In this document: piece by piece, positions 822 through 26,788 of the stretch
Layout of the letters: each line of letters starts with the position of its first letter
Position numbering within the stretch: position 1 is the stretch's first letter
NCBI GenBank assembly: GCA_001873435.1
Contig: MNZB01000003.1
Coordinates: forward strand, 70,427 to 134,426
Reading direction: 5' to 3'
DNA: 64,000 nt
Source: Candidatus Pacebacteria bacterium CG2_30_36_39
GTDB lineage: Bacteria > Patescibacteriota > Microgenomatia > UBA1400 > PJMF01
Notes under the pieces: model-generated
Databases searched by the model: none
Told to the model about the DNA's origin: nothing
Seen by the model: only the letters and a program-made list of their open reading frames with translations
Made by a program: the position numbers and the translations under genes

Positions 822-1916
822 GTGAGTTTAATTAATAAAGAGCAACAATCATATCCTTCTAATTGGCAGGAGCTAGATCATCCTTTTTATGTTTTATGCA
901 GAGATATTCTCGGTGGAAAAGGGGCAATTGGTTTAACTGAACCTAGCCAGCTGAAACCAGATCAAGAATTTTGGGGTCTCAAAGCTCCAAAAGAAATAAT
1001 TATCGCCACTGGAAGCACGAGAAAAGCTTACATGCTAAGTATTGTTCTTAATGGCATTGAGGTTCCGTTGGCTCATCCAATGGATTTTCAGCAATTCATT
1101 GTTGACGCTATTCATAATGGCGATGGGGCCTTGAAAACTAAGACATTTCTAGGTGGTTTTAATGGCGTGCCAGTTTATGCAGAGTCGGCTGCTTCTGGTG
1201 AAACTGCAGCTAATTTTCCTCAAGCGGAAGCTATAAATAAAGCCATGTGGTTATCTGATCAACCACAATATCAGGGTGATGATTATTTAATCGTTTCAAC
1301 AGATACAGTCGATTTTCTAGATCGTGATGGCAACGGACGTATTTCTGCAGGAGAAGAAGGCTTGGGCAAGCCAATGAACCATCCAGATTTTCCAAGCAAA
1401 AATAGTTTAATGAAACTTAAAAATAGTTGGTTAAAGTTTTTAGGAGAGAAAATTCATCTTTGGCAAATAAGTGAATTTGAAAAGCAATATGCAGCTGAAA
1501 ATTTTGAAGGTGGGAAAAACCTAGTACATACCAATGCTATTGCTTTATTAGAACTCTTTGCCGATGGTAGTGAAGAAGTAGTAAGACTTTGGGATGTAAT
1601 TTTGAAGAGTGAGATTGATGAAGATTTCTTTAGCAAATACAGCATGGTTCCAGATCAAGGGGGTGGTGGTGCTTCACAGCAAAATCAAAATTGGGAGTCA
1701 ACAGAAGAACTTTTGGATACATTAGATTCGGAAACAAGAAATATTATGGAGAAGTTGGCTGGAGAGGAGCCAGAATTTTTTAAGTTTTTAGTGATTTTTC
1801 AGATTTCAGGCATGCCTGCTATGAGTATTTTGCATGAGATTGAAAGATTGGCAGAATCTCGCAAAAACTCAGGTCTTAGTAAAGAAGTTGTTGTTTTTGA
1901 ACACAAAGACAGCTAG
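822..1916 (+). CDS. hypothetical protein with a single canonical EF-hand-like Ca-binding loop (DRDGNGRISAGE)
   Basis: 364-aa ORF with a GTG start. No recognisable family. 12-residue loop D-x-D-x-N-G-x-I-x-x-x-E at nt 1320-1355. Confidence 0.55.
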   Translation: MSLINKEQQSYPSNWQELDHPFYVLCRDILGGKGAIGLTEPSQLKPDQEFWGLKAPKEIIIATGSTRKAYMLSIVLNGIEVPLAHPMDFQQFIVDAIHNGDGALKTKTFLGGFNGVPVYAESAASGETAANFPQAEAINKAMWLSDQPQYQGDDYLIVSTDTVDFLDRDGNGRISAGEEGLGKPMNHPDFPSKNSLMKLKNSWLKFLGEKIHLWQISEFEKQYAAENFEGGKNLVHTNAIALLELFADGSEEVVRLWDVILKSEIDEDFFSKYSMVPDQGGGGASQQNQNWESTEELLDTLDSETRNIMEKLAGEEPEFFKFLVIFQISGMPAMSILHEIERLAESRKNSGLSKEVVVFEHKDS

Positions 1917-1928
1917 AGTGGGTAAGTT

Positions 1929-2567
1929 ATGAAACAAAAAAGAGGTATTTTAATTTCTTTGGAAGGTGGCGAGGGTGGTGGAAAAACCACCCAGGTGTTA
2001 AAGCTCAAGGAAAACTTGGAAGCTGTTGGTAGAGAAGTTGTTTCTGTCCGTGAACCAGGTGGTACTGTTATCAGCGAGCAAATTCGTGAGATTGTTTTAT
2101 CTGCAAAGAATAAAGGTATTACTGATGCTACTGAGGTATTACTTTTTCAAGCTGCTAGAGCTCAGATATATCGTGAAGTAGTAATTCCTGCTTTAAATGC
2201 TGGTAAGGTTGTAATCATGGACAGAACTCGTGACAGCAGTGTTGTTTATCAAGGGATGGTGAGGGGTTTTGGTAGAAAGATGATTGAAAGCTTAAATGAT
2301 ATTTCAACAAAAAAAATTACGCCAAATTTAACTCTTTTACTAGATGTTTCAGTTGACACTGGATTGGCTAGAAGAGCTGATTCTGGCAAAATGGATCGTT
2401 TGGATATGGAAAATAAAAATTTTCACCAACAGGTTCGCGATGCTTATTTATTACTTGCAAAAGAAGATGCTGATAATAGATGGCGCCTAATTGATGCAGA
2501 AAAAACTGTTAAAGAAGTTGAAAAGCAGATTTGGAATGTAGTTAAAGCGGAGTTGAAAACAAAATAA
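1929..2567 (+). CDS. tmk: thymidylate kinase
   Basis: N-terminal ISLEGGEGGGKTTQ P-loop, DRxxDSS motif, typical about 210-aa length. Confidence 0.9.
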   Translation: MKQKRGILISLEGGEGGGKTTQVLKLKENLEAVGREVVSVREPGGTVISEQIREIVLSAKNKGITDATEVLLFQAARAQIYREVVIPALNAGKVVIMDRTRDSSVVYQGMVRGFGRKMIESLNDISTKKITPNLTLLLDVSVDTGLARRADSGKMDRLDMENKNFHQQVRDAYLLLAKEDADNRWRLIDAEKTVKEVEKQIWNVVKAELKTK

Positions 2568-2597
2568 GGTGGGTGATAATAATTTTTAAAATCAGTT

Positions 2598-3215
2598 ATG
2601 CAAAAACTTCCAAAAGCTGTCACTCGTTTAATCGATAAATTTGAAAGATTGCCTGGAGTTGGTCCCAAATCGGCTCAGAGATTAGTTTTTTATTTATTGC
2701 ATAACCCAGAACATGAGCTGGTTGATTTTGCTGAAAAACTTTTGGCTCTCAAAAAAAATACGGTTATGTGTGAGAAGTGTCACAACATTGCAGAATCAAC
2801 TCCCTGCCCAGTGTGTAGCGATTCATCCAGAGATAAGTCTTTATTATGTATTGTTGAACAGCCCTTAGATCTATTGGCATTGGAAAAATCAGATGTTTTT
2901 CATGGTCACTATCATGTTTTACATGGTTCTATTTCTCCATTAAATAACATTGGTCCAGAACAGTTATATCTACGTGATATTACCAAACGTTTGGATGGTG
3001 TTAAGGAAATTATTTTGGCTACAAATCCCACCATGGAGGGTGAGGCAACTGCTTTATATATTACTGAGGTAATCAGAAAAAATACTGATGAAAAAATTAA
3101 TAAAATTGCGATTACTAGAATAGGTCATGGTTTGCCAATTGGAGCAGATATTGAATATGCTGATGGAGTAACTTTAGCCAGAGCACTTGAGGGTAGAAGG
3201 CAAGTTGGTACGTGA
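2598..3215 (+). CDS. recR: recombination protein RecR
   Basis: LPGVGPKSAQRL helix-hairpin-helix, C4 zinc finger (CEKCHN..CPVC), Toprim domain. Terminates with TGA. Confidence 0.9.
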   Translation: MQKLPKAVTRLIDKFERLPGVGPKSAQRLVFYLLHNPEHELVDFAEKLLALKKNTVMCEKCHNIAESTPCPVCSDSSRDKSLLCIVEQPLDLLALEKSDVFHGHYHVLHGSISPLNNIGPEQLYLRDITKRLDGVKEIILATNPTMEGEATALYITEVIRKNTDEKINKIAITRIGHGLPIGADIEYADGVTLARALEGRRQVGT

Positions 3216-3257
3216 TATACTGATTCTTAGATGGTTCAATACCGGATAGTTAAAAGC

Positions 3258-3297
3258 AACCGACAAGACTCTTAAAGAGCTAGTCGGTTTTTTATTT
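3258..3297 (+). terminator. intrinsic terminator after recR
   Basis: AACCGAC..(18 nt)..GTCGGTT stem followed by TTTTTTATTT. A second small hairpin CCAGCA-N8-TGCTGG (3298-3317) lies in the hpf 5'UTR. Confidence 0.55.
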
Positions 3298-3336
3298 CCA
3301 GCACCCGGTATTGCTGGAAAAAAGAAAGGAAAAACG

Positions 3337-3687
3337 ATGAACATTCTCGTTCATGCTAAAAATGGAGAGGCCACTAAAGCTCTTCGTTCCTTTATTAAGA
3401 ACCAGATTAAGAAGGTGGAGAAGCTAGGAGTTCCCATCCGCCAAGTACAAGTGTTTTTGGAGAATATTGCCCGCAAAGATAGTGATCCACACCGAGCATC
3501 CGTTGTGGTAGATGTAGAAGTAGCTGGAAAGAAAAAAGTTTCTGTTAGAAGCAGAGCCTATGATTTATATCAGGCTGTTGTAGATGCTTCTCAGGATGTT
3601 CTTCGTCAGGTAAGAAAGCAAAAAGAGAAAAATTTAACTAATACAAGAAAACAACAAAGAGAGATATTTAGAGAAACAGAAGAATAA
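3337..3687 (+). CDS. hpf: ribosome hibernation promoting factor / RaiA (sigma-54 modulation protein family)
   Basis: 116 aa. Conserved MNILVHAKNGEAT...VVVDVEV pattern of YfiA/HPF proteins. Confidence 0.8.
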   Translation: MNILVHAKNGEATKALRSFIKNQIKKVEKLGVPIRQVQVFLENIARKDSDPHRASVVVDVEVAGKKKVSVRSRAYDLYQAVVDASQDVLRQVRKQKEKNLTNTRKQQREIFRETEE

Positions 3688-3734
3688 CTATTTTGGTTTT
3701 TTCTACTTCAGTTCTTGTCTCTTGATCGCACCTC

Positions 3735-4142
3735 TTGTATCGTGGATGTATGTCAGATCCAACACAAGCTTCAAATCAAGCAACTCCAACGGTTGGTAGT
3801 TCACCAGATCCATTGGCGGCACTAGAGGAATTACTTCAAAGCTCTAAAGCTGATGATCCAACCAGTCATCCTTCTGCTGCTTCAGCAGAAACAAAACAAG
3901 CTGAGTTAGATTCGGCGGCAGAAGAAGAAAAGAAAAAAGCTATTCAATTGATGGAAGAAAAGCAAAAAGCTATTGATGCTAGCGATCTTCTTACACAAAT
4001 TTCTGATCTAAAATCGATTGATAGCACTCCACAAGAGCAAGCTCGCTTGGCTCAAAAAGAACAACTTGCCGATGACCAACAAACTCAAAAAGATAATCAG
4101 GGGGTTTATCAAATTCATCAATTAGGACATACTAAAATTTAG
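3735..4142 (+). CDS. hypothetical low-complexity (Q/A/S/E-rich) disordered protein
   Basis: 135-aa ORF, no domain recognised, compositionally biased. Possible start at 3750. Confidence 0.45.
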   Translation: MYRGCMSDPTQASNQATPTVGSSPDPLAALEELLQSSKADDPTSHPSAASAETKQAELDSAAEEEKKKAIQLMEEKQKAIDASDLLTQISDLKSIDSTPQEQARLAQKEQLADDQQTQKDNQGVYQIHQLGHTKI

Positions 4143-4163
4143 TTATTTTGAGGAGAAATTAAT

Positions 4164-4793
4164 ATGCCTGGACCAGGTGTGGCAGCTAGACAAGGCGGGG
4201 GATTCCGTAGTGGTTTTGGCAATTTTAATGATGAACATTTGGAAGAGCAGTCTATGGCTAATTCTTCCAAACAACATCAATTGACTCAGCAAACTAGTAA
4301 TTCAGCTCAAACAACGGCTGGTGGATCTGCTTTACAAAGAGCTGATTCTTCGCAAGAAACCCCAATACAGAAACAAACTCAGCCCAGGGAAGTTGGTACT
4401 TTTAAAGAAGAAGCTAAAAGAGCCTTAAAGGATGTGGTCGATGAAATAAAGGGTTTTTTTAGTCTTAATGATTTATTAAAAATAAACTCTGGTGATACAC
4501 CAGAAGTTAAACAAAAAAAAACTGGAATTTTGCAACGTTTCAATAATTTAACTGAAGAACAAAAACAGGTGGCTCAGAAAAACTTTCAAATAGAAATGCA
4601 GAAAAGGAAAGCTAGGGAAGAGGAAGAGCAGAAAAAGAAAAACCAAGCAGCCCAACAGAAACAAGCAAATATTGCTCCTCCTAGCAGCCCAAGAAAAGGA
4701 GCTGCTGGCCCAGCTGGTTCAAGAAAGCAGCAAGCAACTACTCAACTAGAACAAGATCGCCAAACCATAGGCAAAATGGCAAGTGCTCATTAG
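4164..4793 (+). CDS. hypothetical Q/K/E-rich disordered protein
   Basis: 209-aa ORF with a strong SD (GAGGAG) 8 nt upstream. Low-complexity coiled-coil-like composition. Confidence 0.55.
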   Translation: MPGPGVAARQGGGFRSGFGNFNDEHLEEQSMANSSKQHQLTQQTSNSAQTTAGGSALQRADSSQETPIQKQTQPREVGTFKEEAKRALKDVVDEIKGFFSLNDLLKINSGDTPEVKQKKTGILQRFNNLTEEQKQVAQKNFQIEMQKRKAREEEEQKKKNQAAQQKQANIAPPSSPRKGAAGPAGSRKQQATTQLEQDRQTIGKMASAH

Positions 4794-22188: not shown

Positions 22189-22425
22189 TTATCTTTTTTT
22201 TCTTGCAGTTTCACCCATTTTTAAAACAGCTAGACCATATTTAAATGGTTCTTCATAAGTGGCAACTACGGCAGCATTTGCAAAAGCAACTGCTTTGGGA
22301 TGTCTAGTATTTTTTCCAGCCCAACGAATAAAATCATGCTCATGATCCAAAATACTTAAAACATCAGCAGTAGAGAATGGGGGATTTAAATGGGGAAATA
22401 GATCTTTTTCAGTTTCGTTATTCAT
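22189..22425 (-). CDS. hypothetical small protein downstream of prfA
   Basis: The ORF track gives 22189..22476. The ATG at 22425 lies just past the prfA stop, so I chose it. No family recognised. Confidence 0.35.
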   Translation of the reverse strand: MNNETEKDLFPHLNPPFSTADVLSILDHEHDFIRWAGKNTRHPKAVAFANAAVVATYEEPFKYGLAVLKMGETARKKR

Positions 22426-23368
22426 TTGTTTCAGGTGTTTGCTCGTCTTCTTTTTCAATGTTTTGTCTGACTTCAATTAACATTTTATTTAAGTCTCCCT
22501 CAAGAATTGTTTCTAAGCTATGCCAAGAAACATTAATCCGATGATCAGTGACTCTGTTTTGTGGATAGTTATAGGTACGGATTTTTTCAGCACGCATATT
22601 ACGACCAATAACTTTACGAGCGCTACCCAAAGCTTCTTGTTTTTTCTCTTCTTCAATTTCCCAAAGCTGTGCTCTAAGTAATTCTAAAGTGATTTGACGA
22701 TTTTGAACTTGTTTGCGTTCTTGGCTTGAAGTAACGACGATACCAGATGGAACGTGAGTCAAACGAACAGCGCTACTAGTTTTATTAACTGATTGACCAC
22801 CAGCTCCACCAGAACGCATAAATTGCCAAATGAGGTCTTCATCACGAATTTCAATGGCATTGGCTTTGATTTCAGGTAAAACCGCCACGGAAGCGGTTGA
22901 GGTATGAATTCTGCCTTGAGCTTCAGTGGTTGGCACGCGTTGAACTCGATGAACTCCAGATTCATATTTAAATAAGTCATAGGCATAAAGTGTTTCGCCA
23001 CCTATTTCTGCTCGACCTCTAATTTTGATCACTAAATCATCAATGTATTCCATTTTTAGACCAGCAGTTTCAATGAAACGTAGATACATGCGCAGAAGGT
23101 CGTTAGCCCAGATTTTAGCTTCATCACCACCAGCTCCACCACGAATTTCTAGAATAGCATTGGATTTACTAGTGTCAGTTTCTTCTTCTGTTTCTTGGGT
23201 GCTGTGGGCAAATTCTTCAGCTGCATCTTCAAGGGCTTTTTTTTGAATTTCAAGGTCAGCAATTTCTGCTTGAGCTAGTTCTCCTAACTCTGGATCAGTA
23301 ATTAAAGCCTGGTTTTCGGTGATTTTCTGTTCTAGCTGTTGGATTTGATCGGTATAAGGATTGTACAT
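22418..23368 (-). CDS. prfA: peptide chain release factor 1
   Basis: GGQ motif (SGGAGGQSVNKT). Tripeptide anticodon of the PxT type (RVQRVPTTEAQGRIHTS), which marks RF1 rather than RF2. No frameshift site. Confidence 0.85.
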   Translation of the reverse strand: MYNPYTDQIQQLEQKITENQALITDPELGELAQAEIADLEIQKKALEDAAEEFAHSTQETEEETDTSKSNAILEIRGGAGGDEAKIWANDLLRMYLRFIETAGLKMEYIDDLVIKIRGRAEIGGETLYAYDLFKYESGVHRVQRVPTTEAQGRIHTSTASVAVLPEIKANAIEIRDEDLIWQFMRSGGAGGQSVNKTSSAVRLTHVPSGIVVTSSQERKQVQNRQITLELLRAQLWEIEEEKKQEALGSARKVIGRNMRAEKIRTYNYPQNRVTDHRINVSWHSLETILEGDLNKMLIEVRQNIEKEDEQTPETNE

Positions 23369-23434
23369 ACAACAAAAATCCCCTTCATTATACCCTGGAT
23401 TAGCAGGGAAGGGGATCTTTCCTAGAAAACTTAG

Positions 23435-23794
23435 CTAATTAGCAGAGACTTCAACTTTTTTCTCAACAGGAGCTGTCTTAGCCTCTTGTTGTAAGGTTGA
23501 GCGTTGTTCACGCAAAATGTCTTGATATGATTTTGGAGTATTGTCTTTGTCTGTGGTTTTTTTGGCTTTTTTAGCACTTGCTTGTTTGGTTTGAGCAAGT
23601 TGCATTTTAGCTCTGAAACGATCTACACGACCTTGACGATCAACAAATCTCATTTCACCAGTAAAGAATGGGTGACAAGCACTACAGATATCTACTTGAA
23701 TGGTTTTCAATGCTGAACCAGTAGTAAAGGTGTTACCACAACTACAAGTAACTACTGTGTCATGGTTCCAATTTGGATGAATATTTGCTTTCAT
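23435..23794 (-). CDS. rpmE: 50S ribosomal protein L31 with Lys/Ala-rich C-terminal extension
   Basis: N-terminal MKANIHP..CSCGN..C..C L31 zinc-ribbon core (about 70 aa), then about 45 extra residues. Confidence 0.85.
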   Translation of the reverse strand: MKANIHPNWNHDTVVTCSCGNTFTTGSALKTIQVDICSACHPFFTGEMRFVDRQGRVDRFRAKMQLAQTKQASAKKAKKTTDKDNTPKSYQDILREQRSTLQQEAKTAPVEKKVEVSAN

Positions 23795-23877: not shown

Positions 23878-25122
23878 TTAAATAGAACGGAAATTAGCTA
23901 TTTTTTCCAAAGAAATTGTCGTCTGATTGCCTGTTTTCATATTTTTAATTGAAACTGTCTTATTTTTTGCTTCTTCCTCACCAACAATTAAAACGTATGG
24001 CATCTTGTTTTGATCTGCATACTTAAATTGTTTGCCTAATTTATCAGTTTCTGGATAAAGTTCTGTTTTAACTCCTAATTTTCTAAGTTGTTGAGTGGCA
24101 AGTAGGGTTTCAGTTAAAGTATTTTTATCAAAATTAGCTACTAGTACTTCAACTCCTTGATTAATTGGGATTAACTCTAGTGCAGTTGCAGCTTCAACAA
24201 TGCGATCAAAGCCAAAAGCTACACCGGTTGCAGGCATATTTGGACCACCTAAGTCTCTTATTAATTGGTCATAACGACCGCCTCCGCCACAGGATCCAAC
24301 TGGATATTCTGGGATGATGATTTCAAAAATCATACCAGTGTAATAATCTAAGCCACGAGCTAGGATGGGGGAGAATTCCAATGCTTCTTTTGGTATTCCA
24401 AGAGAATAAACATTTTGTTCTATATTACTTAAATTTACTGATTTTTCAGCATTTTTTATTGATGTCAAAGCCTCTTCAGCCTTAGATTTTTCCAAGCCTT
24501 TTTTAACTAATTCTGCCACTACATCTTCGGGTTTAATTTTATCTAATTTATCAATGCTTTGGATGAGAGAGAAAACATTTACTTGTTCATTGGTAAATGG
24601 CTGTAAGGTTTTTATTAGGGTTTCACGATCATTGAAGCGTAAAACAATATTTTTAAAGCCTATGGCTTTAAAAGCCTGGTAGGTGCAAGCCATAATTTCT
24701 GCATCAGATAAGGGTGAGGTGCTGCCAAAAATATCAATATCACATTGAGTAAATTCTCTAAAGCGACCTTTTTGTGGTTTATCTGCACGGAAAACATTTT
24801 GAATTTGGTAGCGACGGAAATATTTTGGTAGCTTATCTTGATATTGAGTTAAAACTCTGGCGCTTGGAACCGTCTGGTCATAGCGCAGACCTATTTTACG
24901 ATCACCTCGATCTTCAAATGTATAAACTAGTTTATCTGCTTCTTCACCATATTTACCCAAAAGTAAGGAGGCGTATTCTAAGGTTGGAGTTTCAATTGGT
25001 TGAAAGCCAAATGTTTCAAAAACGGTTTTGATTTTTTGCACTACAAAATCTCGAGCTCTTTTTTCTTCTGGAAGAAAATCTCGAAAACCTTTTAATGTTT
25101 GTAATGGTTGTGTTTGTGTCAT
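23878..25122 (-). CDS. hisS: histidine--tRNA ligase
   Basis: Class II aaRS motifs, HisRS-specific LKGFRDFLPEE and GGRYD. 414 aa. Good SD (AAAGGAAAT) before the ATG. Confidence 0.9.
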   Translation of the reverse strand: MTQTQPLQTLKGFRDFLPEEKRARDFVVQKIKTVFETFGFQPIETPTLEYASLLLGKYGEEADKLVYTFEDRGDRKIGLRYDQTVPSARVLTQYQDKLPKYFRRYQIQNVFRADKPQKGRFREFTQCDIDIFGSTSPLSDAEIMACTYQAFKAIGFKNIVLRFNDRETLIKTLQPFTNEQVNVFSLIQSIDKLDKIKPEDVVAELVKKGLEKSKAEEALTSIKNAEKSVNLSNIEQNVYSLGIPKEALEFSPILARGLDYYTGMIFEIIIPEYPVGSCGGGGRYDQLIRDLGGPNMPATGVAFGFDRIVEAATALELIPINQGVEVLVANFDKNTLTETLLATQQLRKLGVKTELYPETDKLGKQFKYADQNKMPYVLIVGEEEAKNKTVSIKNMKTGNQTTISLEKIANFRSI

Positions 25123-25178
25123 ATTTCCTTTGTTATTGTACTTGTTTCTATCTGGTTTGTCTGGAGAATTTGGGTATT

Positions 25179-25200
25179 AAAAAACCCGCCTCAGTGCGGG
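25179..25200 (-). terminator. intrinsic terminator in the hisS 5' leader (attenuator terminator)
   Basis: Minus-strand ACCCGC-ACUGAG-GCGGGU stem followed by UUUUUU, 57 nt upstream of the hisS ATG. Confidence 0.55.
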
Positions 25201-25232
25201 TAATCTTCTCCAATCCAACCATAACCCACACT

Positions 25233-25283
25233 TTAGAGGAGGGTATGATGATGAACTTGAGTTGTTGCGTTAGATAACAACAT
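25233..25283 (-). CDS. candidate His-rich leader peptide MLLSNATTQVHHHTLL (hisS attenuation leader)
   Basis: Minus-strand ATG ttg tta tct aac gca aca act caa gtt CAT CAT CAT acc ctc ctc TAA. GUGUGGGU directly after the stop can pair with ACCCGCAC of the terminator (antiterminator). Promoter-like TTGACT-N17-TAGGAT at 25320-25292 would give a leaderless transcript. Confidence 0.4.
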   Translation of the reverse strand: MLLSNATTQVHHHTLL

Positions 25284-25291
25284 AGAACAAT

Positions 25292-25320
25292 ATCCTATAA
25301 GAAAATTGGGTTTTAGTCAA
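25292..25320 (-). promoter_or_regulatory. sigma70-like promoter (TTGACT-N17-TAGGAT) for the his-leader/hisS transcript
   Basis: -35 at 25315-25320, -10 at 25292-25297 (minus strand). The predicted TSS is within a few nt of the leader ATG. Confidence 0.35.
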
Positions 25321-25368
25321 GAACTAGCTAAAAAACCAGGTTAGCAATGCTACAATACTGTTATAAAG

Positions 25369-25441
25369 GGGCCACTAGCTCAGTTGGTAGAGCGTTGCAT
25401 TCGCATTGCAGAGGTCAGGAGTTCGACTCTCCTGTGGTCCA
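25369..25441 (+). tRNA. tRNA-Ala (anticodon CGC)
   Basis: Hand-folded cloverleaf: acceptor GGGCCAC/GTGGTCC with G3:U70 Ala identity pair, D-arm GCTC-AGTTGGTA-GAGC, anticodon loop TTCGCAT, T-arm AGGAG-TTCGACT-CTCCT. No encoded CCA. Confidence 0.85.
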
Positions 25442-25444
25442 CTG

Positions 25445-25972
25445 ATGAAAATTACCTTAAGACCAGCCAAAAATGAAGATTTGGCTATTTATACCAATCT
25501 CTTACAAGAATCTTATCAAGATAGTTATGTTTCACCTGAAATTGGTTTAACTCCAGCTTGTTTTGCAAAAGAAATTTTTCAGACAGAAGACACTCAGAAA
25601 TATCTTGCTACAAACTTAGTGAATAATGAGTTGCAACAAACTTGGTTGGCTTTTAATCAAGATAATTTGCTTATAGGCAGTATTACTTTGGAGCACCAGG
25701 GAAACGAGTGTGAATTACGTGGTTTTTATGTTAAACCAGGATTTCAAGGACAGGGGATGGGTAAAAAACTTTGGCAGCAAATCTTACCTTTTTCTAGAGG
25801 AAAAGATATTATTTTGAATATATATGCTCATAATTTGAGAACTATAGATATTTATAAGAATTGGGGTTTTAAAGTTGATAAAACAAAACCAGCTTTTTTT
25901 AGGCATTGGCCAGAATGGCCAGACAATGTTCAAGCAAAATGTATTTATATGCGTTTAATCCAAAAAGATTAA
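25445..25972 (+). CDS. GNAT family N-acetyltransferase
   Basis: Acetyl-CoA binding motif (RGFYVKPGFQGQGMGKKL). The ORF track start 25406 lies inside the tRNA. MKITL at 25445 is the first start clear of it. Confidence 0.7.
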   Translation: MKITLRPAKNEDLAIYTNLLQESYQDSYVSPEIGLTPACFAKEIFQTEDTQKYLATNLVNNELQQTWLAFNQDNLLIGSITLEHQGNECELRGFYVKPGFQGQGMGKKLWQQILPFSRGKDIILNIYAHNLRTIDIYKNWGFKVDKTKPAFFRHWPEWPDNVQAKCIYMRLIQKD

Positions 25973-26788
25973 GCCATAAAAAATATTTGCTACATCTTTT
26001 TTAACTTGTTCGTCGTCAATATTTATCTCTTGATTTACTAAATATAAATGTTTACTTGTAGTAAAAGCATAAAAGATTTTCTCATCAAGTTTTCCACCAG
26101 CAAAAACTATTTTTACTACGGATTTACCCCAAATACTTGTTTCTGTTGATTCAGCAATCGTCAAATTTGCTTGCTTAAGTTCTTCGTCATTATCAATTAC
26201 TGTTTGAATTTTCTCTTTTAGATTATTGGAAGTTAAATTTTCTAAGTTATTGTTGCAATAAACAGCTATTTGTCCTGGTGGGTTTTCATTTGTTTCTTCT
26301 TTGCTTCTGAACGTGGTAAGAGCAACTTGATCAAAGATATTTAGAAAAGGAATAGGGAAGTCATTGCCTACCTTCAGATATGTGAATTTCCAATCTCTAA
26401 TGATGTTATTTTGGTCATAGCCAGCAATATATGGAGATTTGGGAATCAATAGATTACAGTTTTCAACTTTATCAAAGCTCCAGCCCCATTGGTCATCTCC
26501 AGGCATTTTTGTAGGTTCAATACTTGGTTGTTTTGTTGGAGAGATGATTGATGGCTGAGGACTTGGTTGATTTGCAATTTGTTGTTTATTTTGCTCAAGG
26601 GTTTTTTCGATTCTTAATTGAATTTTTTGTTGAATTAAATAAACAGAAAGCAAGCCAAATGCCATGGAAGTTAAAAAGAAAATTACTGTAAAGCGAAATT
26701 GATGTGGATTCTTTCTAAATTTTTCTAAAGTTTCCTCTAGTTGTTTGTTTTGATCTTTACTAAGAAATTTATTTAAAATATTTTGCAT
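25955..26788 (-). CDS. hypothetical membrane-anchored protein
   Basis: One N-terminal TM helix, Q/P-rich linker, globular C-terminal domain. No family recognised. Confidence 0.5.
   Translation of the reverse strand: MQNILNKFLSKDQNKQLEETLEKFRKNPHQFRFTVIFFLTSMAFGLLSVYLIQQKIQLRIEKTLEQNKQQIANQPSPQPSIISPTKQPSIEPTKMPGDDQWGWSFDKVENCNLLIPKSPYIAGYDQNNIIRDWKFTYLKVGNDFPIPFLNIFDQVALTTFRSKEETNENPPGQIAVYCNNNLENLTSNNLKEKIQTVIDNDEELKQANLTIAESTETSIWGKSVVKIVFAGGKLDEKIFYAFTTSKHLYLVNQEINIDDEQVKKDVANIFYGLIFLD

Follow-up and report, generated by a model that had tools for sequence, protein, structure and literature searches.

A predicted histidine leader-peptide attenuator ahead of hisS in a Pacebacteria genome and in related Microgenomates

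The 64,000-nt stretch analysed here, hereafter the window, is part of contig MNZB01000003.1 (positions 70,427 to 134,426) of Candidatus Pacebacteria bacterium CG2_30_36_39. Its minus strand carries hisS, the gene for histidyl-tRNA synthetase, preceded by a promoter-like sequence, a short open reading frame (sORF) with three tandem His codons and an intrinsic terminator. The element ahead of hisS is probably a ribosome-mediated leader-peptide transcription attenuator, which would couple transcription of the gene to the charging of tRNA-His. About 45 related versions, identified by sequence comparison in other loci, make it very likely that the element is a real histidine-sensing switch. The host belongs to the Patescibacteria, known also as Candidate Phyla Radiation (CPR), bacteria that cannot be grown alone, have reduced genomes and feature few recognisable regulators. 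To our knowledge, almost nothing is known of gene regulation in these microorganisms.

Organization and alternative folds of the hisS leader

The features of the locus are listed in Table 1. The large ORF scores 399.6 bits against TIGR00442 (cutoff 286.75), HisZ models remain below their cutoffs, and by these profile scores the gene is a bona fide hisS. The window has a G+C content of about 36%, and the G/C-rich segments of the leader are conspicuous against that composition. The original prediction, made from the DNA letters alone, had read at this site a TTGACT-N17-TAGGAT promoter, a 16-codon ORF with three CAT His codons, pairing between the segments GUGUGGGU and ACCCGCAC, and a GC stem-loop followed by U6 ahead of hisS. 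All these elements are present. The hexamer pair of P1 scored 9/12 in the promoter scan, and a terminator-like site was reported independently by a scanning tool. The segment GUGUGGGU spans residues 25231-25224; ACCCGCAC spans residues 25201-25194, and its first six bases make the 5' arm of the terminator. Two distances had to be corrected, as GUGUGGGU begins 1 nt, rather than 2 nt, after the leader stop codon, and the U-tract and the ATG of hisS are separated by 56 nt, rather than 57. The possibility that the hairpin is the terminator of an upstream gene was rejected. The upstream neighbour is a divergent tRNA-Ala(CGC) gene (plus strand, 25369-25442), and the hairpin therefore ends no upstream minus-strand gene.

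Table 1. Features of the hisS leader region (window coordinates; MFE, minimum free energy; CDS, coding sequence; SD, Shine-Dalgarno)
Feature	Coordinates	Strand	Basis and remarks
P1, -35 box TTGACT	25315..25320	-	sequence and promoter scan
P1, -10 box TAGGAT	25292..25297	-	promoter scan; ends 8 nt before the sORF ATG
Leader ORF, 16 codons plus TAA, peptide MLLSNATTQVHHHTLL	25233..25283	-	ATG 25283-25281, stop TAA 25235-25233
Proposed sensing codons, CAU CAU CAU (three tandem His)	25245..25253	-	sequence
Region 1, AGUUCAUCAUCAUACCC, 5' strand of the 1:2 anti-antiterminator hairpin; overlaps the His codons	25241..25257	-	MFE structures of 105-nt and 176-nt leaders
Region 2, AGUGUGGGUUAUGGUUGGAUU	25212..25232	-	25232-25224 pairs with region 3; 25227-25212 pairs with region 1
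Region 3, ACCCGCACU, common to antiterminator (with 25232-25224) and terminator (with 25189-25184)	25193..25201	-	folding
Intrinsic terminator, stem ACCCGC/GCGGGU (25201-25196 / 25189-25184), loop ACUGAG, U6 25184-25179	25179..25201	-	
-10-like TACAAT, possible second promoter P2; CAGACA 17 nt upstream	25135..25140	-	promoter scan
hisS CDS 23878-25122 (ATG at 25122), SD-like AAGGAAA 25130-25124	23878..25130	-	TIGR00442

The 105-nt leader RNA, from the AUG to U6, folds with an MFE of -32.4 kcal/mol (z=-2.55), and the structure contains the terminator and a second hairpin, overlooked in the original prediction. In this 1:2 hairpin, found also in the 176-nt fold, AGUUCA..AUCAUACCC (25257-25241) is paired to GGG.UUAUGGUUGGAUU (25227-25212), and the His codons, along with ACCC, are engaged with GGGUUAUGG. 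The 1:2 hairpin completes the classical four-segment attenuator design. Ribosome positions were mimicked by folding the RNA without region 1 (from the stop codon onward), or without region 2 (from 25222 onward). The former yielded a 9-bp antiterminator (25232-25224 / 25201-25193; -13.9 kcal/mol) and no terminator, the latter the terminator (-11.5 kcal/mol). The RNA can adopt each of the three states of the classical model, and the alternative pairing is able to compete thermodynamically; terminator and antiterminator exclude each other, as originally proposed.

Related leaders in other genomes

The window was compared to 160 loci encoding HisS relatives, found by HisS protein scans, 80 of them in species-representative genomes and 80 in metagenomes. 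HisS identity ranges from 47 to 78%. The relatives, where their names are informative, are metagenome-assembled genomes (MAGs) of the Patescibacteria group or the Microgenomates group (Pacebacteria, Roizmanbacteria, Woesebacteria); some third party annotation (TPA) MAGs are labelled otherwise, for example as 'uncultured Pseudomonadales'. Loci are denoted L001-L160, the window leader WIN. The motif scan required an sORF no longer than 40 codons, in which two or more His codons stand in tandem, and a GC hairpin with a T-run at most 90 nt after the sORF, all within 450 nt upstream of hisS. It was positive in 13/80 genome loci and 20/80 metagenome loci (33 loci). About 14 further leaders were identified by a covariance model or by inspection, and the total amounts to about 45/160 loci, including L043, the truncated L031 and the one-His variants L012 and L101. 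The conservation of sORF and His codons in relatives, on which the original prediction had been made to depend, is thus observed. The covariance model, built from 22 leaders, has one match in the window (25179-25256, 64.5 bits). It recovers all the motif-scan positives but L051, L123 and L132 (marginal, E 0.04-0.66), and adds same-strand matches located 0.7-2.5 kb upstream of hisS.

The same motif search was run, as a control, for eight other two-codon amino acids. Runs of at least three codons were found for His in 8 + 11 loci (19), and in 0 loci for each of the eight others, for which runs of at least two codons were found in at most 5 loci per collection. A broader scan, covering 1.73 Mb (window and loci, both strands), retrieved sORFs of 8-30 codons adjoining a strong terminator and featuring triple runs of any amino acid. 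The 30 hits are runs of His (26), Leu (3) and Thr (1), and the three Leu cases sit inside the same His leaders. No leaders for other amino acids were found in the window or in any locus scanned.

Identical copies were removed, and the 30 distinct leaders left were used for all geometry and promoter counts. They fall into at least 10 sequence subfamilies. Leader sORFs in the relatives measure 13-25 codons, and encode peptides such as MTKVAVKLAHHHSLR, MQKINEKTSVFHHHSST, MQYKTTKNTESHHHPLSRGL, MLITRLFQNHHHTNF, MLLQSKKLAHHHNHHIQGV and MINSRVLHHHHTHSF. The number of His codons varies from 2 to 6, and CAT and CAC are synonymously interchanged (66 CAT and 28 CAC in all). The His run is located 9-12 codons from the start in 26/30 leaders. 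The run, its distance from the start, the C/U-rich codons behind it and the position of the stop codon are kept across leaders; the G-rich segment and the terminator also recur, while the remaining peptide and stem sequences vary. A variable peptide with a constant His run, as these sequences predict, is the mark of a sensory leader ORF, not of a functional peptide. A degenerate variant is found in L012 (2883-2959) and L101 (1383-1459), where the sORF MSKEKTNKINNSHSILPRGG contains one His codon only, and region 2, GGAGGGUGAU, is retained together with the matching terminator ACCCUCC...GGAGGGU-U6. The variant may be a decaying attenuator, or one of altered specificity.

Terminator stems differ by subfamily (ACCCGC, AUCCCC, AACCCUCU, GCUCCC, CCCGCC and others). 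In a covariance-model alignment of 35 matches, 95.4% of the cells of the helix are paired, and covariation measures 0.553, against 0.173+-0.027 in shuffled sets (0/500 shuffles reach the observed value) and at most 0.122 in slid controls. Analysis of 22 leaders by plain MAFFT/RNAalifold recovered only the terminator, and neither the 2:3 nor the 1:2 helix, because the register of these helices shifts between subfamilies. An alignment-free duplex test and an anchored alignment were therefore used. In the former, duplexes were computed between the stretch that separates His codons from terminator and a terminator 5' arm, taken either from the same locus or from another. Own pairs average -13.16 kcal/mol, cross-locus pairs -9.66 kcal/mol, and the own-pair mean was reached in 0/20,000 permutations. 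Ranked among dinucleotide shuffles, the 2:3 duplex does not exceed the 8th percentile in 13/14 loci. In the anchored alignment (A2) rows were set on the first C of region 3, and were left ungapped by MAFFT. Covariation of the 2:3 helix is 0.326, against 0.155+-0.022 in shuffles, and cells changed on both sides are 62, against 40.3+-3.9 (0/500 shuffles in both cases). Pair 8-27, for example, is GC in 11 sequences, CG in 5, UG in 4, AU in 2 and UA in 2. The pairing of GUGUGGGU with ACCCGCAC therefore belongs to a helix which covaries across loci. The 1:2 pairing runs ungapped for 6 bp or more in 21/30 leaders; the helices are bulged and heterogeneous. Comparison of WIN and L001 reveals a compensatory A-U to U-A change in 1:2 (ACC...UUAUG and UCC...UAAUG, respectively). 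Under constrained folding the switch is reproduced in WIN, L001, L002, L005, L051, L058 and L073.

The last His codon and region 2 are separated by 5-21 nt (median about 13) in the 30 leaders, and by 12 nt in the window. The core of region 2 extends, at its 3' end, not more than 10 nt beyond the stop codon in 30/30 leaders, and the sORF extends through region 2 in ten of them. Ribosomes cover about 10 nt 3' of the A-site codon. Given this spacing and the usual footprint, a ribosome stalled at the His codons would leave region 2 free, while a ribosome which has reached the stop codon, or is translating through region 2, would block it.

Additional pairings were noticed. In the window (25166-25213, minus strand), UGGAGAA, upstream of the terminator, and UUCUCCA, downstream of the U-tract, are perfect complements. 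The helix encloses the terminator in the 176-nt MFE structure and could form in read-through transcripts only; it has no obvious counterpart in L001 or L002. A hairpin internal to the sORF, 5' of the His codons (25262-25282, minus strand), might serve as a pause element. The hairpin, seen in several subfamilies (L002, L003, L032, L153 and L156 among the others), gives too weak a signal for a firm call (mean z -0.66; z<-1.5 in 9/30 leaders). In the window MFE structure, the SD sequence of hisS is not sequestered by pairing.

Predicted leaderless starts and leaders ahead of other histidine genes

The best -10 hexamer ends 6-9 nt before the start codon of the sORF in 22/30 leaders. Promoter scores of at least 9/12 were assigned to 60% of the 30 leaders, and to 2.7% of 1177 control ATGs. 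TTGAC[TCGA] with a 17-nt spacer is kept in WIN, L001, L002, L003, L005, L032, L058, L073 and others. Typical arrangements are TTGACC-17-TATAAT-8 nt-ATG, TTGACA-17-TATAAT-7 nt-GTG and TTGACT-16-TAAAAT-7 nt-ATG. Members of the window subfamily read TTGAC[TG]-17-TAGGAT-8 or 9 nt-ATG, except that L084 has TTGCGG and a 6-nt gap. The distance from P1 to the AUG leaves no room for an SD sequence. This arrangement suggests a leaderless leader peptide, with transcription predicted to start at or next to the AUG; the suggestion of a leaderless start made originally for the window is strengthened by the conserved spacing of -10 box and ATG.

The start of hisS itself was compared in loci with and without a leader. 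In the latter, a -10 hexamer (at least 5/6) is found 5-9 nt before the ATG in 47/110 loci (L007, L014, L021, L027 and 43 further loci), the random expectation being 3%. Such leaderless-type hexamers are found in only 6/30 leader-bearing loci (Fisher p=0.03). Conversely, SD-like motifs precede hisS in 15/30 leader-bearing loci and in 18/110 loci without leader (16%; Fisher p=4e-4). An SD-led hisS in the presence of a leader would be expected of a gene translated from a long read-through transcript. The data as a whole suggest that leaderless gene expression may be widespread in this CPR lineage.

In several loci the leader is separated from hisS by other genes (Table 2). In L030 and L044, hisS is the last gene of the cluster placed behind the leader (L030:488-4245, L044:~1080-4209). 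The best matches of the DapF-family protein of about 230 residues found in four loci are histidine racemases (PDB 9cr1_A, E=1.9e-9). The protein has no Pfam hit, and its scores with the NCBIfam models CntK (52.5 bits) and HisR (48.1 bits) are both far below cutoffs. The gene resides behind a His leader at L037:2304-2996, L146:804-1496, L039:2295-3011 and L013 ~869-1498, and lies directly upstream of hisS also in L147, L069 and L026. Its association with hisS hints that salvage of D-/L-histidine may be co-regulated with hisS in CPR. Given the short HisG beside a HisS-type protein, one may ask whether HisS also serves there as the HisZ regulatory subunit.

Table 2. Leaders separated from hisS by other genes
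Locus	Leader	Genes before hisS
L030	MINNYRQTLAIHHHSLHIMGVRSRV	HisG-like (PF01634, 34.7 bits), hisD (PF00815, 476 bits)
L044	MCESLRITTVTHYHSHQMAGSVSYF	hisG (TIGR00070, 93.2 > 75.75), hisC (TIGR01141, 280.7 > 276.55)
L037, L146, L039, L013	various	~230-aa DapF-family protein
L086	MQKLFVTLAAHHHSLL	sub-threshold HisG-like ORF
L068	MRSLSLHHHHSHE	445-aa unknown
L048	MSKRISFTSALHHHFHIVRGSVFLD	HAD hydrolase, nucleoside hydrolase
L093	MLCNYQISADHHTHAFLVRG	141-aa and 89-aa unknowns

The leader occurs ahead of various histidine operons, and is therefore tied to histidine physiology, not to the position of one gene. The finding of the same device in front of different histidine genes is strong functional evidence, of a comparative kind, that histidine is what the leader would sense. 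It is slightly more likely than not that Microgenomates use leaderless leader-peptide attenuators lineage-wide, as a histidine 'regulon' which would include hisS and, in relatives, hisG, hisD, hisC and the histidine-racemase-like gene. No histidine biosynthesis genes were found in the 64-kb window by tblastn searches with HisD, HisG-like and other genes of the relatives.

Mechanism, alternatives and precedents

From these data we infer where transcription starts, that the sORF is translated, that ribosomes stall within it, and that hisS mRNA levels respond. RNA polymerase would start at P1, essentially at the leader AUG, and a 70S ribosome would load on the leaderless 5' end of the transcript. 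When charged tRNA-His is ample, the ribosome would read CAU-CAU-CAU through to the UAA, and its footprint would cover AGUGUGGGU, the portion of region 2 found right after the stop codon. Region 3 would then pair with region 4 to form the terminator, and transcription would stop at U6 (25179). When charged tRNA-His is scarce, the ribosome would stall on the His codons, covering region 1 and not region 2, which lies 12 nt downstream. Region 2 would pair with region 3 as soon as this is made, the terminator would be blocked, and the polymerase would enter hisS, to be translated from its own SD sequence. In the absence of translation, both 1:2 and 3:4 would form and transcription would terminate.

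Several observations weigh against this mechanism, or restrict it. About 70% of the related loci have no leader. The window leader has only three His codons, and some relatives have two. With region 1 masked, the terminator stays the MFE structure in 7/14 relatives; in those seven the outcome must be decided kinetically, by formation of 2:3 ahead of the transcription of region 4. In the E. coli trp attenuator 3:4 is likewise more stable than 2:3. Support for 1:2 pairing is modest, own pairs averaging -8.95 and cross-locus pairs -8.17 kcal/mol (p=0.018), a small advantage because the His codons are constant. In the anchored alignment the register of region 2 was fitted for each sequence, which inflates the percentage of paired cells, not the shuffle-based covariation test. 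Finally, 18/30 leader-bearing loci have a -10 hexamer (at least 5/6) 10-34 nt upstream of hisS, compared to a background of 12.7% at random positions. The P2 hexamer of the window ends 12 nt before the hisS ATG, and transcripts starting from it would carry a leader of about 5-6 nt devoid of SD. Counterparts of P2, (G)TACAAT or TATAAT, were noticed in L001, L005, L058, L102, L160 and others. One point on which the original interpretation may not hold is the dependence of hisS on P1 alone, given this conserved -10-like sequence between terminator and hisS. The gene probably has a basal, attenuator-independent transcription, as judged from the hexamers, to which the attenuator would add a histidine-responsive component.

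Taken to the extreme, the same hexamers could mean that P1, sORF and terminator make an independent short unit, a small RNA or micro-peptide gene, and that hisS is transcribed only from the proximal TACAAT (25140-25135). Enrichment of the hexamer between terminator and hisS in leader-bearing loci fits this scheme, as does the frequency with which hisS has its own promoter in relatives without leader (the 47/110 loci with a -10 hexamer 5-9 nt before the ATG). An independent unit is nonetheless unlikely, as it leaves unexplained the conserved and covarying complement of the terminator 5' arm found at the stop codon. Moreover, the His codons are the sole conserved part of the peptide, the unit always precedes hisS or his-operon genes in the same orientation, and SD-like motifs at hisS are enriched where the leader is present. 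The small number of His codons, two or three in some leaders, would also suit an attenuator that senses translation without histidine specificity, monitoring the general availability or speed of ribosomes as those of the ermC or pyrBI type, the His codons being incidental; in this geometry, any slowing of the ribosome before the stop codon favours the antiterminator. We regard this as quite unlikely, since the only coding feature conserved in >40 leaders is the His run, with no other triple runs among the two-codon amino acids compared, and the genes downstream are hisS, hisG, hisD, hisC and the histidine-racemase-like gene.

The same terminator and antiterminator might be governed, independently of translation, by direct binding of tRNA, as in T-boxes, or by another ligand. 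hisS is T-box regulated in Firmicutes (PMC2965389), and the window leader does contain a CAU triplet and UGGG/UGGU motifs. Such a riboswitch is very improbable. The leader, about 105 nt long, lacks a Stem I or specifier architecture and matches no Rfam family; UGGG is not conserved, being replaced in relatives by GCGGGG, AGAGGGU or AAGGGGG, and the His triplets belong without exception to the frame of an ATG-to-stop ORF which starts at a promoter. From the window alone, it could be argued that an AT-rich spacer came by chance to contain a short ORF, a His run and a hairpin, as three tandem CAY triplets occur there 18 times (both strands, any frame) and promoter-like hexamer pairs are no commoner than in shuffles. 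Chance is excluded because the architecture recurs in relatives, not from the window alone: the full set of elements, with different sequences, is found in about 45/160 loci, is His-specific and has covarying helices, which effectively refutes this explanation. The reading of the element as a histidine-specific attenuator of hisS hence remains the probable one.

Of the features that define its class, the leader has all those that can be read from the sequence: an sORF with tandem codons for one amino acid, a terminator, a mutually exclusive 2:3 helix, a 1:2 helix over the His codons, and a stop codon placed next to region 2. Rfam searches of the interval 24800-25700 at E<=10 with permissive filters found no match, including RF00514 and the T-box model RF00230, and at gathering thresholds the whole window contains tRNAs only. 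By these searches, the element belongs to no known RNA family, and is analogous to, and independent of, the His_leader. The latter, hisL of Enterobacteria (RF00514), similarly has tandem His codons in a short ORF, along with alternative hairpins (terminator, antiterminator and anti-antiterminator), and reads out the charging of tRNA-His (PMC9413887). The two have no sequence or structure homology. hisL has seven His codons, the window leader three; the window leader would control a synthetase gene, in relatives also biosynthetic genes; and its ORF, in a CPR host, seems leaderless, whereas that of hisL is SD-led. More His leaders are known in his operons of Firmicutes (PMC9413887).

Classical attenuators precede pheST in gamma-proteobacteria (pheM-pheST in E. 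coli), and trpS2 and leuS in Streptomyces (PMC1262725). In these systems, too, an attenuator is found before the cognate synthetase gene, and low charging results in more synthetase; amino acid, lineage and sequences are different. We know of no report that the leader ORFs of pheM-pheST, trpS2 and leuS are leaderless. The nearest published precedent is the His leader predicted by Naville & Gautheret 2010 upstream of a hisS paralogue (hisS*) and hisZ in the Bacillus cereus group (PMC2965389), and the original statement that no His-leader attenuator had been described for hisS has to be withdrawn. There, as in the window, an sORF with His codons and a premature terminator come before a gene of the hisS family. 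hisS* differs in being a duplicated Firmicutes paralogue in cells whose main hisS keeps a T-box, while the gene controlled here would be a bona fide hisS, and the family is spread through Microgenomates; the comparison was made by description, not by sequence. The hisS T-box of Firmicutes (RF00230) shares with the window element the gene, the uncharged tRNA-His signal and the terminator/antiterminator output, and differs in the sensor, which is direct binding of the tRNA, rather than a ribosome on an sORF. Leaderless polycysteine sORFs of mycobacteria act on translation by unmasking a ribosome-binding site (RBS; Canestrari et al., bioRxiv 10.1101/834739). The leader described here would resemble them in having a leaderless sORF, with a tract of codons for one amino acid, as the ribosome-stalling sensor for downstream operon genes. 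The present element has in contrast a canonical intrinsic terminator and a competing antiterminator, hence a transcriptional output, rather than RBS unmasking.

The mechanism is classical and not new, and the element is a sequence-unrelated instance of it, the first found in CPR. Full-text literature searches found no report of leader-peptide attenuation in CPR/Patescibacteria. If the lineage-wide reading is correct, this would be the first amino-acid-responsive cis-regulator described in these bacteria. It would also provide direct evidence of tight transcription-translation coupling in ultra-small cells, and join leaderless initiation to a classical terminator/antiterminator switch, a combination which we have not found described. 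The advance would lie in the phylogenetic reach and in the leaderless start, not in the principle, as control of synthetase genes by leader peptides has precedents. Cells would tune an essential synthetase and, in relatives, genes for histidine synthesis or salvage, to the histidine supply through a switch that can be read from the sequence, and intrinsic termination would have to operate in them along with coupled transcription and translation. In metatranscriptomes, histidine starvation would be legible in situ from the ratio of reads upstream to reads downstream of the terminator.

Minor features of the neighbourhood were also recorded. A 277-aa ORF in the window (25955-26788, minus strand) has no NCBIfam match. 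The order tRNA-leader-hisS is retained in L001, L003, L005, L032, L038 and L058, and the divergent promoters share a spacer of about 50-130 nt. Downstream of hisS, the same strand encodes rpmE (L31) and prfA (RF1), at 22418-23794 in the window, and a promoter-like TTGGCG-17-TATAAT sequence (TG-extended; 23860-23832) is located between hisS and rpmE.

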